Of a stretch of DNA of 26,286 nucleotides, positions 23,763 to 26,286 are shown one piece after another. Numbering within the stretch: position 1 is the stretch's first letter; every line of letters starts with the position of its first letter. Position numbers and translations under genes: made by a program. Origin of the DNA: Bacteroidaceae bacterium (lineage in GTDB: Bacteria; Bacteroidota; Bacteroidia; Bacteroidales; Bacteroidaceae); assembly GCA_028707655.1 (NCBI GenBank), contig JAQWAN010000001.1, positions 1 through 26,286 of the forward strand, in the 5' to 3' direction. The notes under the pieces are model-generated. The model was not told the origin of the DNA and ran no database searches. It saw nothing but the letters and a program-made list of their open reading frames with translations.

Positions 23763-24171
23763 TTAGATAAAGAGCTTAAATACCGCTTACAATTCATTAA
23801 ATCTCCCAGCAAGATTAACTATAAATAACAGTAAAGGTTACGCACAAAATCACTACCTTTATAGTGCAGATGGAGCAAAACTACAAGTTAATAAAGTTTG
23901 GAGTAGTGCCATGAGAGAACAAACAGACTATGTAGGCAATATGATTTACGAAAACAATGCTTTGAAACGCATCCTTGTTGATGGTGGTTATATAGAAGAT
24001 GGAGCGTATTACTTCTATGAGACTTTTACGACTGCCACTCAAAGTTTAAAAAATGTAAGTGTAACAGTCTCCCGTAGTTTAGCTGCTCCTGTAAATGCAA
24101 CTCGTTTGCCTGCTTTTAACTTTTTTCTCAACGGAACAAGACGCAGTTTTTTCAATTCTTTTAATAAATAG
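23763..24171 (+). pseudogene. Rhs/YD-repeat toxin gene remnant: Rhs core fragment joined in frame to a 50-aa foreign C-terminal tail
   Basis: The frame from 23767 reads AYNSLNLPARL..YLYSADGAKL..TDYVGNMIYENNALKRILVDGGYI..YYFY, typical Bacteroidota Rhs core. It has no start, there is an upstream in-frame stop (23764) and frameshifted LDK, and the expected DH.G and DPxG motifs are missing. Confidence 0.8.
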
Positions 24172-24179
24172 TAATGATT

Positions 24180-24710
24180 ATGAAAAAAAAGTTGTTATTT
24201 GCAGCAATAATTGGTCTAGTCCTCCATTTCAATATGTTTGCCCAAAAAGGATATGCTGAAAAAATAAATCAGTTGAATGAAAAAGGGCAAAAGGTGGGTT
24301 TGTGGAAAGAAAATAGAAATAAGTATGAACGGACTGAAATATATTACCACAATGGAAAGAAAAATGGTTTGTATAGAGTGTTAAATATTACAAATGGTGA
24401 ACTTTATTTTTTTGGTGAATATAAAAACGATACGATTATTGGTACTTGTTATTTTTTCGGAGATTTTGGGCATTTATCAATGATTCAGAAAGATTTTAAG
24501 AAAAATAACAAGAGAATTCCTATTAAAGGAGTACAGGGTATTCTGCCATATCAATGTTATTGTATCACTTACCATCCAAATGGTATAAAAGAATCAGAGG
24601 GAATTTTGTTATGGAGCGAAGACTCCGACGGTGAATTTACTTTTGAATATGGCGAATGGAAATATTACACTGACACAGGAGTGTTGACAAAAACAAAAAT
24701 ATTCAAATAA
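24180..24710 (+). CDS. Exported MORN-variant/YwqK-like repeat protein, putative immunity protein (alternative start 24174)
   Basis: Signal peptide, INQLNEKGQKVGLW, YHNGKKNG, YHPNGIKESEG and GEWKYYTDTG repeats. It starts within 10 nt of the Rhs-remnant stop. Confidence 0.7.
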   Translation: MKKKLLFAAIIGLVLHFNMFAQKGYAEKINQLNEKGQKVGLWKENRNKYERTEIYYHNGKKNGLYRVLNITNGELYFFGEYKNDTIIGTCYFFGDFGHLSMIQKDFKKNNKRIPIKGVQGILPYQCYCITYHPNGIKESEGILLWSEDSDGEFTFEYGEWKYYTDTGVLTKTKIFK

Positions 24711-24714
24711 CCTA

Positions 24715-24752
24715 AACAGCCCCGTACAGAAAACTGTCGGGACTGTTCTTTT
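24715..24752 (+). terminator. Hairpin/terminator after the immunity-like gene
   Basis: Imperfect stem AACAGCCCCG-t-ACAG / CTGTCGGGACTGTT with loop AAAA, followed by CTTTT. Confidence 0.6.
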
Positions 24753-24785
24753 GTATTCCCCCGAGCAAGTACCCCTTTTCTTTCC

Positions 24786-24827
24786 AAAAAAAATCTCTAT
24801 AGCCAATTTTTAGAGTTATAGAGATTT
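24786..24827 (-). terminator. Intrinsic terminator of the integrase gene
   Basis: Stem AAATCTCTATA / TATAGAGATTT. On the minus strand it is followed by a run of 8 T, about 85 nt after the integrase stop. Confidence 0.7.
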
Positions 24828-24912
24828 CTATTTTCCATTGTGTAAAGTTATACTTTTTACACTTAACTCAATGTCCGGCTAAAGTTAGCTATTCCAAAGG
24901 AAAAATATAGTT

Positions 24913-25974
24913 TTACAAATTATCCAACGGACTTTTAATTTGAGATTTAGAAATATCGGTAATGTGGGTATAAACTTGGGTGGTTTTTATAGAATTATGA
25001 CCTAATAATTCTTTGATAAAACGAATGTCTGCACCACTTTCAATGAGGTGGGTGGCATAACTATGGCGTAAACTATGAATACCGATAGTTTTATTGATTT
25101 TTGCCTTTTTCATTGCGTTTTTGAATACAGCCTGAGCACTTCTAACAGAATACTGTCCGCCGTATTGTCCCTCAAAAAGCCACTCTTTGGGTTGGTAAAG
25201 TTTGTAATACGCTCGCATAGGCTCTAAAACAGATATTGGCAAATTTACATATCGGTCTTTTTTGCCTTTCGCTCCTCTGATAAGAACTCGCATATTATCG
25301 CTATCAATATCTTCTATTCGGATATTTACAATTTCGCTGACACGAAGCCCCATTCCATAGCATAATTGTAAAACCAAAAGATGTTTGGGGTTGGTAGTTG
25401 CTTTTAGCAATTTTCTTACTTCACTCTTGCTTAATACTTTAGGAAGCAAGAGTGCTTTTTTAGGACGAGGAATATCAAAAAACATTTTAGGCTGATGTAG
25501 CACTTGTTCAAAATAGAATTTTATAGCATTTATTTTGGAATTCATTGTGGCTTCTTTGGCTTTGTGTTGTTCAAGACAATACAGAAAATAATCTTTGAGT
25601 CTTTCAGGTGTTAGCGTATCAACAGGTATGTTTTTTAGTAATTTCAATAATTGCTCAAACTCGTTTACATAAAGCCTTATGGTATTTTTGCTATACGCTT
25701 TTAGGTTGAGTGTACTAATATAATTTTGTAGTGCAATTTGGTTTTGTGGACAAATGGCACTGGTGATTTTCTCCTTTTTGGGTGGAAGATGTAATGCTTT
25801 TCTGACAGCAGGTAAATCAGGTAAATACCACGCTTTATGAGTTTGACTCCATTTTGCAGAAGGAAAATGATTTTTTAGGGCATTTTTCAAGGCGACAGTG
25901 TAATAAAAACGTATCCAAATGACTTCTTTTTCGTAATATTCCCCAAATGAGAACTGATATAATGATAAATCCAT
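24913..25974 (-). CDS. Tyrosine recombinase, integron-integrase-like but lacking the IntI-specific insertion, with an extra N-terminal domain
   Basis: Intact catalytic set GLRVSE (R), AKGKKDR (K), HSLRHS (HxxR), LLGH (H) and TQVYTH (Y). It has IntI-like LPKVLS and terminal SPLDNL motifs, and a SAM-like N-domain (YSKNTIRLY). Confidence 0.92.
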   Translation of the reverse strand: MDLSLYQFSFGEYYEKEVIWIRFYYTVALKNALKNHFPSAKWSQTHKAWYLPDLPAVRKALHLPPKKEKITSAICPQNQIALQNYISTLNLKAYSKNTIRLYVNEFEQLLKLLKNIPVDTLTPERLKDYFLYCLEQHKAKEATMNSKINAIKFYFEQVLHQPKMFFDIPRPKKALLLPKVLSKSEVRKLLKATTNPKHLLVLQLCYGMGLRVSEIVNIRIEDIDSDNMRVLIRGAKGKKDRYVNLPISVLEPMRAYYKLYQPKEWLFEGQYGGQYSVRSAQAVFKNAMKKAKINKTIGIHSLRHSYATHLIESGADIRFIKELLGHNSIKTTQVYTHITDISKSQIKSPLDNL

Positions 25975-26126
25975 AAATTGCGTATTTTGTGTTATCTAAT
26001 TTACACAAAGGTGATATAATAACATATAATACGCAAGTGATTAATACAAAATGCGTAAGTAATATTTTTAAGCAACACGCTATTATATATACTTTTATCG
26101 CCTTATATATATTCTTTGAGGTAGAT

Positions 26127-26158
26127 TTTGATAATTTCAAAAAACTTGCGTATATTTG
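26127..26158 (+). promoter_or_regulatory. Consensus Bacteroidota promoter driving the downstream gene(s) (Pc-like)
   Basis: TTTG (26127-26130), 20-nt spacer, TATATTTG (26151-26158). Confidence 0.8.
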
Positions 26159-26168
26159 TGTGTTGTAC
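26150..26168 (+). other. Putative attI-like recombination site
   Basis: GTTGTAC (26162-26168), a relaxed GTTRRRY core, preceded by a 5-bp spacer and a degenerate inverted box GTATATT. It lies between the divergent integrase and aadS. The assignment is inferred from position. Confidence 0.45.
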
Positions 26169-26194
26169 GACATAGTAAAACCGAACCAAACAAA

Positions 26195-26286
26195 ATGAAA
26201 GTCAGAGAAGAAAAGTTAAGAACAATTATAGAATGGTCGGAGAAAAACGAAGATGTAAGAGTTCTTCTTCTGACAAGTTCACTTGT
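26195..26286 (+). CDS. aadS: Aminoglycoside 6-adenylyltransferase (streptomycin resistance), 3'-truncated by the window end
   Basis: The ATG at 26195 translates to MKVREEKLRTIIEWSEKNEDVRVLLLTSSL(V), which I recognise as the N-terminus of Bacteroides AadS (ANT(6) family). Not in the ORF track. Confidence 0.9.
   Translation, partial: MKVREEKLRTIIEWSEKNEDVRVLLLTSSL

Follow-up and report, generated by a model that had tools for sequence, protein, structure and literature searches.

The analysed stretch of DNA (the window) was the entire 26,286-bp contig C174 of a fragmented Bacteroidaceae metagenome-assembled genome (MAG; 281 contigs, 81% complete, 38.8% G+C). The last part of the window is very probably the integrase-proximal end of a chromosomal integron belonging to a Bacteroidota-wide class, in which a 353-aa recombinase is the cognate cassette integrase. 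The contig end cuts the resistance gene aadS after 30 codons, and 125 nt of one cassette (26162-26286) lie within the window. The remainder of aadS was not found in the MAG contigs. The features of this end were as follows, where a slash in a sequence marks the crossover.

24781..24829, minus strand: terminator-like hairpin with a 13-bp AT-rich stem and U8, its function suggested by an RNA fold of 24775-24915 on the minus strand (z = -2.75)
24913..25974, minus strand: integrase gene, an intact open reading frame (ORF) for a 353-aa Xer/IntI-like tyrosine recombinase (Pfam Phage_integrase, 3.5e-40, and Phage_int_SAM_4)
25981..25992, plus strand: box 1, CGTATTTTGTGT, adjoining the integrase start, a direct repeat of the attI core
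26044..26055, plus strand: box 2, ATACAAAATGCG, which repeats box 1 in inverted orientation 63 nt further downstream (in most homologous loci, the distance is about 50 nt)
26127..26158, plus strand: predicted Pc-like cassette promoter reading into the cassettes, with the -33 box TTTG at 26127-26130 and the -7 box TATATTTG at 26151-26158
26149..26164, plus strand: attI core CGTATATTTGTGTGTT, which overlaps the -7 box and extends to the crossover
26162..26164, plus strand: crossover triplet GTT (G/TT), common to the attI side and every cassette
26165..26286, plus strand: start of the aadS cassette, with a 30-nt leader and the coding sequence from 26195 (NCBIfam ANT_6_aadS match over 30 codons)

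A first-pass annotation of the window had described an intact tyrosine recombinase on the minus strand with its own terminator, a non-coding spacer of about 220 bp, a promoter facing away from the recombinase, a GTT 3 nt past the -7 box, and a resistance gene starting 33 nt past the G of this triplet. All of these held. The distance from the integrase ATG (25974) was 187 nt to the GTT and 220 nt to the aadS ATG, and the predicted terminator lay 84-132 nt past the integrase stop. The promoter is predicted to be active from its match to the Bacteroidota -33/-7 consensus; TTTG-N20-TAnnTTTG had four matches in the window compared with 1.2 expected, and one of these was 26127-26158. The scans for sigma-70 promoters and G-C-rich terminators were uninformative for this AT-rich organism, and the hairpin at 24781-24829 was missed by the consensus terminator scan because it has too few G-C pairs.

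The insertion site was located by the comparison of strain variants. In an exact protein-sequence look-up, five further public contigs, including L084-L087, proved to encode the identical integrase. Among them, L084, L085, and L086 shared the downstream chromosome of the window, with the 178-aa ORF and the genes for a xanthine/uracil permease, a lipocalin, an epimerase, and a lactonase. Their identity with the window was 99.4% through the integrase and the spacer as far as the final T of the GTT (base 26164), and the sequences were unrelated beyond this base. The window continued as GTT/GTACGAC, L084-L086 as GTT/AGCGGTAA, and L087 as GTT/AGTGGCAA. Accordingly, the contexts of the identical integrase parted after 26164 into three different cassettes, which marks an attI insertion site beside the integrase. 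The first-pass annotation had expected conservation up to about 26162 and a difference directly after it, and it would have been contradicted by one gene always following the integrase; the conservation ended at 26164, and three different cassettes followed. The GTT was common to both partners and the surroundings were all exchanged; therefore, the junction is the footprint of site-specific recombination. On L087 (1-2560), the identical integrase also parted from the window on the other side, at 24835, which is 78 nt past the integrase stop, and an IS3-family transposase came next; the integrase-attI module itself may have moved or rearranged there.

The same boundary was found from the side of the cassette. 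Bases 26162-26286 were 100% identical to the aadS regions of six Bacteroidota plasmids (one from Riemerella, one from Empedobacter, two from Myroides, and two from Bacteroides). The identity began at the G of the GTT, the block starting with GTTGTACGAC, and the DNA before the GTT was unrelated in five aadS plasmid junctions (four records, one with two copies). In complete copies of aadS, the stop was followed by GTCGTACAAC, which matches the reverse complement of the cassette start exactly, and then by an imperfect hairpin of about 120 nt ending in ...GGCACG/TT, after which three records differed. The aadS attC was 135 nt long (L089:1990-2124). Such a near-complement past the aadS stop, followed by a hairpin and a new GTT, had been predicted by the first-pass annotation, which had also considered that aadS might be bounded by the ends of an insertion sequence (IS); no IS ends were present in the window. 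In the Myroides plasmids, IS ends bounding aadS were rejected as well, as an IS91-recombinase unit sits inside the aadS attC and not at the gene borders.

The sister strain L084 carried several cassettes in a row. The first encoded a VEB-family class A beta-lactamase and ended in TACCGCTAAC...hairpin...AAACCG/TT; the second held ermF, inverted and with an IS3 element inside, and ended in GTGCATAAC...hairpin...AAACCG/TT; the third encoded an MscS-like channel and ended in GCTTTATAAC...hairpin...CATCCG/TT. A short ORF formed the array tail, followed by tRNA-Phe and tRNA-Pro. At the end of each of the three consecutive cassettes stood the reverse complement of its first 9-10 nt, and a hairpin and another GTT came next. 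The expected same-strand ORFs between related imperfect inverted repeats were thus present in this sister-strain array, and also in many homologous loci.

The folding of four attC sites was calculated with DNA parameters and gave an R box, an asymmetric spacer, and a roughly 19-bp L stem. In every site, the bottom strand was more stable than the top strand, with energies (bottom/top) of -28.6/-24.7, -27.4/-23.7, -22.6/-17.2, and -18.5/-16.7 kcal/mol. In the alignment of eight sites, compensatory changes occurred at 18 of the 26 consensus pairs, and one G.T wobble was invariant. The alignment of 61 distinct attC was fitted to the covariance model and so is biased towards the structure; in it, 91% of the cells were paired compared with 36-44% in slid controls, double changes were found at 21 of the 26 pairs, and the bottom-strand G.T wobble was kept in 57 of 60 sites. 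Both this wobble, which on the top strand would be an A.C mismatch, and the energy difference suggest an active bottom strand. Moreover, the R''/R' complementarity varied by cassette yet was always kept. It has no role in a double-stranded site and therefore argues for a folded substrate. From these sequence features, we infer that the attC act as folded bottom strands.

The distribution of the element was investigated by a scan with one genome per species, which yielded 242 relatives of the integrase. Of the 80 loci retained, 46 were examined, with matches at 42-81% identity. A covariance model built from eight attC detected 67 sites in 643 kb. All the attC in integrase loci were upstream of the integrase and oriented as cassettes reading away from it, and the covariance model found none on the integrase-downstream sides of about 8 kb. 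Three attC were also weakly called on the opposite strand. The arrays comprised six sites in Zobellia laminariae, five in the type strain of Empedobacter stercoris, four in L024, and at least three in L084; one-strand upstream arrays of 4-6 attC each were present in L011, L023, and L024. Each array interval was filled by one ORF in the same direction. The cassettes of E. stercoris encoded an APH-like kinase, an ABC-F ribosomal protection protein, and two Lnu(H)-like proteins, and the first cassette of L025 was tet(X), 127/127 identical to a Riemerella plasmid copy.

The attI side was conserved in the same loci. The motif CGTATATTTGNGNGTT, which includes the -7 box TAnnTTTG, was found with up to two substitutions upstream of 32 of 41 homologous integrase genes. 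It ended 131-320 nt upstream of the integrase start and was always on the strand of the cassette direction. The remaining sequence of these loci, 814 kb, served as background and had one match, which places the motif far above chance. Directly after the GTT of this motif, the homologous loci diverged in sequence. In addition, box CGTATTTTGTAT (up to two substitutions) occurred in 26 of the 41 homologous upstream regions, against a background of about one per 7.9 kb, and the inverted box in 24 of the 41, typically about 50 nt from box 1. Box 1 is a candidate binding site for the integrase or a regulator.

In 14 of the 46 loci, the contig broke 125-345 nt upstream of the integrase homologue, just past the attI motif (L004, L006, L015, L025, L026, L028, L031, L032, L034, L036, L037, L045, L046, and L048). 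The broken assemblies came from many different Bacteroidota, and two of them were isolate assemblies of type strains, Kaistella chaponensis DSM 23145 and Flavobacterium croceum DSM 17960. Breaks past attI are to be expected if the DNA there is repeated or variable. These breaks bear on the question of whether the aadS end piece is a chimera of the metagenomic assembly, with a coincidental likeness to attI. The piece is confined to the last 125 nt, the contig stops there, and aadS is common to many taxa, all of which would suit a chimera. However, the join falls at the exact base where independent assemblies switch cassettes, the same base starts aadS cassettes elsewhere, and the 3 nt shared are insufficient to mislead an assembler; a stop at this distance from the integrase also recurs in the 14 loci above. 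A chimera is extremely unlikely.

The integrase genes were widespread and carried general names. Of 400 other Bacteroidota species genomes sampled, 11 (about 3%) had an orthologue (E <= 1e-80), and these came from several families and classes. At least 7,969 protein clusters matched the integrase at E <= 1e-30, a count that probably includes more distant Xer-like recombinases. Among the 120 best matches listed, the names were 'tyrosine-type recombinase/integrase', 'XerD', and 'integrase', and never integron integrase.

The best profiles for the integrase were XerA/'integron integrase' with 208 bits and the TIGR02249 integron integrase with 193.7 bits (cut-off 265); both scores were under the cut-offs, yet over those of XerC and XerD. 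The XerC equivalog gave 179.7 bits against a cut-off of 335 and XerD 173.8 against 330, so the enzyme fell outside both, and the PRK15417 profile gave 128 compared with a cut-off of 435. The best-matching solved structure in the PDB was VchIntIA (IntI4). The catalytic motifs LRxxE, KxKxR, HxLRHxxATH, and YTH were all present in the alignment with VchIntIA, and the IntI-like C-terminal SPLD motif was kept (KSPLDNL in the integrase, SPLSR in VchIntIA). The IntI-specific insertion contacts the extrahelical bases of attC. In the integrase of the window, there was no counterpart to residues 214-248 of VchIntIA or to positions 180-241 of TIGR02249, and the lack of an IntI signature claimed by the first-pass annotation was borne out by this gap and by the TIGR02249 score.

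The enzyme had an extra N-terminal domain of about 65 residues (about 25780-25974), which was conserved in the alignment of homologues. AlphaFold gave a predicted local distance difference test (pLDDT) value of about 90 over residues 1-60, with a predicted beta-beta-alpha-beta-beta-alpha order. A search of this domain against Pfam returned nothing at E <= 10. A HARP-like or other known fold was also considered and rejected; the domain had no Pfam relative, and its best PDB match had E = 0.23 and a template-modelling (TM) score of 0.39. Speculatively, this domain may be a candidate reader of attC in place of the I2 insertion.

The absence of the insertion bears on whether the Xer-like gene is the integrase at all. 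The array could be a cluster of attC sites lacking an integron integrase (CALIN), on which a canonical IntI encoded elsewhere acts in trans, with the Xer-like gene as a bystander or working in dimer resolution or inversion. That the window enzyme lacks the IntI insertion would fit this, as would the handling of the blaVEB-1 cassette by IntI1-type integrons. However, the gene, the motif at a fixed distance, and the cassettes were linked in 32 of 41 diverse loci, and the attC lay on the upstream side only. A canonical IntI (TIGR02249 above its cut-off) was found neither in the MAG nor in five further genomes with homologous integrase loci, four of the latter with detected arrays, so that arrays were detected in five of the six. 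Furthermore, the MAG holds two further Xer-like genes, which are XerC/XerD-like paralogues separate from the integrase. Service in trans is very unlikely, and the Xer-like gene is preferred as the cognate integrase.

Another explanation is that a mobile element carrying the integrase (an integrative element or an IS91/ISCR-like one) ends at the GTT, the variable DNA being its insertion targets. In Myroides plasmids, a 33%-identical recombinase stands with an IS91 transposase beside resistance genes, the identical integrase occurred once with different downstream DNA (L087), and the integrase region had 29-33% G+C against 38.8% for the genome; each of these would agree with such an element. However, the integrase side was the same chromosome for more than 8 kb in the window and L084-L086, and it was the other side that varied. 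This variable side consisted of cassette units with their own attC, which had the same boundaries in unrelated integrons. The window has no IS91 gene, and the IS91-recombinase units themselves lie within attC sites. It is highly unlikely that the GTT is merely the end of an integrase-carrying element; the reading as an attI crossover is kept.

The insertions of the IS91-recombinase units were also recorded. Units of an IS91 transposase and a 300-aa recombinase lay inside attC at L091:5543-8000 (Myroides odoratimimus p63039), at L091:8898-11342, and in L093. The Myroides aadS attC was broken right after GTCGTACAA and resumed after ...TTAGTTCAAC; the aadS, catB, and tet(X2) cassettes then followed the recombinase. 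By its position, the unit looks like an attC-targeting or cassette-mobilising element.

The features of the window can be joined into a mechanism. The integrase would act on the attI core in double-stranded form (CGTATATTTGTGTG/TT, 26149-26164) and on a folded attC strand of about 135 nt carried by a circular cassette, and would recombine the two with a cut at G/TT, as in classical integrons. Transcription would begin near the junction because the -7 box is part of attI; this box ends 3 nt before the GTT, and the transcript start would be about at the junction. An inserted gene would then be expressed with the short leader that it brings along (30 nt in aadS, 33 nt in VEB). The first cassette is aadS in the MAG, and in the sister strains the array runs as blaVEB-1, ermF (IS3 inside), mscS-like, and orf to tRNA-Phe/tRNA-Pro.

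Several points weigh against this proposal. All the attC evidence comes from records other than the window, and we infer the catalysis of cassette recombination by this enzyme from sequence comparison. The attI motif was absent from 9 of the 41 homologous loci. With the first model, 11 of the 27 loci with at least 1 kb upstream had no attC match. The MAG is 81% complete, and a canonical IntI there could be missed; none was found in the five other genomes either, one of which is a complete chromosome. The extra domain of IntI is held to be necessary for recombining folded attC, and the window enzyme is without it. A helper protein or a different form of the substrate could conceivably be involved.

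The beta-lactamase of L084 linked these arrays with the classical integrons. It was assigned to blaVEB (698.7 bits, cut-off 670), which belongs to subclass A2. The block from G/TTAGCGG to ...AAACCG/TT was 99.7-99.9% identical in 50 proteobacterial plasmid records (Klebsiella, Pseudomonas, Escherichia, Vibrio, and others). In Pseudomonas aeruginosa pBT2101, the order was aadA1, VEB-1, and aadB, and both G/TT boundaries of VEB-1 were the same as in L084. The boundaries are equal in a class 1 integron; therefore, the Bacteroidota attC are of the kind that class 1 integrons use, with the same cut position. The nearest matches to the VEB attC, at 73% identity, were three sites from Bacteroidota arrays (L024, L042, and the MAG contig C110), and the loop motif CCTGTCAAACCG was common to the VEB and C110 attC. 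The other subclass A2 families listed beside VEB (RATA, CGA/CIA, CME, CfxA, and CepA) are Bacteroidota enzymes. The attC similarity and these subclass A2 relatives suggest a Bacteroidota origin of the VEB cassette. It is doubtful that canonical attC models would miss these sites, because blaVEB-1 is a working cassette of class 1 integrons; such arrays would more probably be listed as attC clusters that have no integrase.

The distal end of the MAG array was found on contig C110. It carried the tRNAs and the last cassette in common with L084, followed by two attC and other cassettes, namely an isochorismatase-GrpB fusion, uppP, and a corA-like gene. The sequences of C110 and L084 parted exactly at an attC, and the MAG array was thus split over C174 and C110. 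In this stretch of cassette genes (C110:6755-9310, L095), the fusion had 372 aa, with isochorismatase-like and GrpB-like domains assigned by eye from the translation. The undecaprenyl-diphosphatase gene (uppP/bacA-like) came after it and was 30 nt from the corA-like gene with no attC in between, and the pair may be a two-gene cassette.

The surroundings of the integrase in the window were as follows. The G+C content fell to 33% and then 29% over 24001-26286, compared with 38-42% in the rest of the contig. The low G+C of the integrase region, a compositional trait, suggests horizontal acquisition. Two adjoining plus-strand ORFs of 86 aa and 178 aa (23911-24710), convergent with the integrase, were kept beside it in L084-L086. 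The product of the 178-aa ORF had no Pfam or NCBIfam match.

IntegronFinder 2.0 found in Bacteroidetes only In0 elements and a single complete integron, in Salinibacter (PMC9024848), and integron integrases have been defined by their additional domain (10.1101/2022.02.06.479319). In E. stercoris, a divergent 'xerD' was described upstream of tet(X14), and an integron was stated to be absent (PMC7473080). A tetX-catB11-IS91-XerD cluster was described in Chryseobacterium (PMC11194056). In Riemerella, aph(3')-IVb integrated with a 27-bp leader and an attC-like stem-loop of 140 bp; this took place in the absence of homology, its mechanism was described as 'yet to be elucidated', and the same homology-free integration was reported for lnu(H) and blaRATA (PMC13148043). 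A platform linking the recombinase, attI, and attC arrays was not found described in open-access papers or preprints, and subscription journals may hold such a description.

With moderate confidence, we propose a phylum-wide, overlooked class of integrons, whose integrase is related to IntI but lacks I2 and has a new N-terminal domain, and whose attC are recombined in folded form. This class would be the native platform for tet(X), aadS, ermF, lnu(H)-like genes, and probably OXA-347; it would be the likely source of blaVEB-1 and would exchange cassettes with classical integrons. If this is true, it would account for the presence of 'xerD' genes next to tet(X), catB, and aadS in Flavobacteriia and for the homology-free integration of a gene with a stem-loop in Riemerella. 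The clinically important class 1 cassette blaVEB-1 stands in a chromosomal Bacteroidota integron with the same boundaries, which makes the origin of the cassette testable. In addition, the class would challenge the necessity of the IntI extra domain for folded attC and so bear on the evolution of integrons. Surveys based on the IntI domain would not count these elements as complete integrons.

A truncated homologue, 47% identical over residues 118-353, was present on p80-1-2-tetX3 of Acinetobacter indicus (L102:4052-6073) and on about 50 other Acinetobacter plasmids. It is the 'xerD' of the tet(X3) literature and stands directly upstream of tet(X3) in the same direction, not divergent from it; it was not used as evidence. 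This homologue may be a relic of the platform carried by ISVsa3/ISCR2.

Compared with classical integrons (IntI1/VchIntIA), the element was alike in its divergent integrase, adjoining attI, predicted promoter into the cassettes, and G/TT crossover. The cassettes likewise had one ORF and one attC each, with the R''-L''...L'-R' architecture, one-way arrays, and the shared blaVEB-1 cassette. The integrase differed from classical IntI in lacking the insertion of about 35-60 residues, in scoring under the TIGR02249 cut-off, and in its extra N-terminal domain. The predicted promoter differed from the classical Pc in being a Bacteroidota -33/-7 promoter with the -7 box within attI. Classical attC have extrahelical bases where the consensus L stem here has the near-invariant G.T, whereas the VEB and ermF sites fold with one bulge.

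The 'xerD' genes beside tet(X), catB, and aadS in Flavobacteriia are the same or related recombinases facing away from resistance genes (PMC7473080, PMC11194056). The Riemerella units share the leader, the gene, and the 3' stem-loop of about 140 nt, and tet(X) and a Lnu(H)-like gene are cassettes in the Bacteroidota platform. No integron was reported in these papers on 'xerD' and Riemerella, and they gave no explanation of the mechanism, whereas here attI, attC, and arrays were defined and tied to the recombinase. The IS91-linked recombinase units of Myroides and Chryseobacterium plasmids were similar in their 33% identity, the same profile pattern, and divergent cassettes starting from the GTT. 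However, that recombinase has 300 aa without the N-terminal domain, is coupled to IS91, and lies inside attC; the window integrase has no adjacent IS91 (HUH) transposase, and its downstream neighbour is the convergent 178-aa ORF. XerC/XerD-dif and the pdif modules of Acinetobacter share the Xer-like catalytic core and the modular movement of resistance genes. However, here the borders were not 28-bp dif-like sites; they were hairpins of about 135 nt with cassette-specific complementary ends. To the earlier descriptions, the window adds the base-exact attI crossover from strain variants, the predicted promoter fused to attI, and the tie to clinical cassettes.

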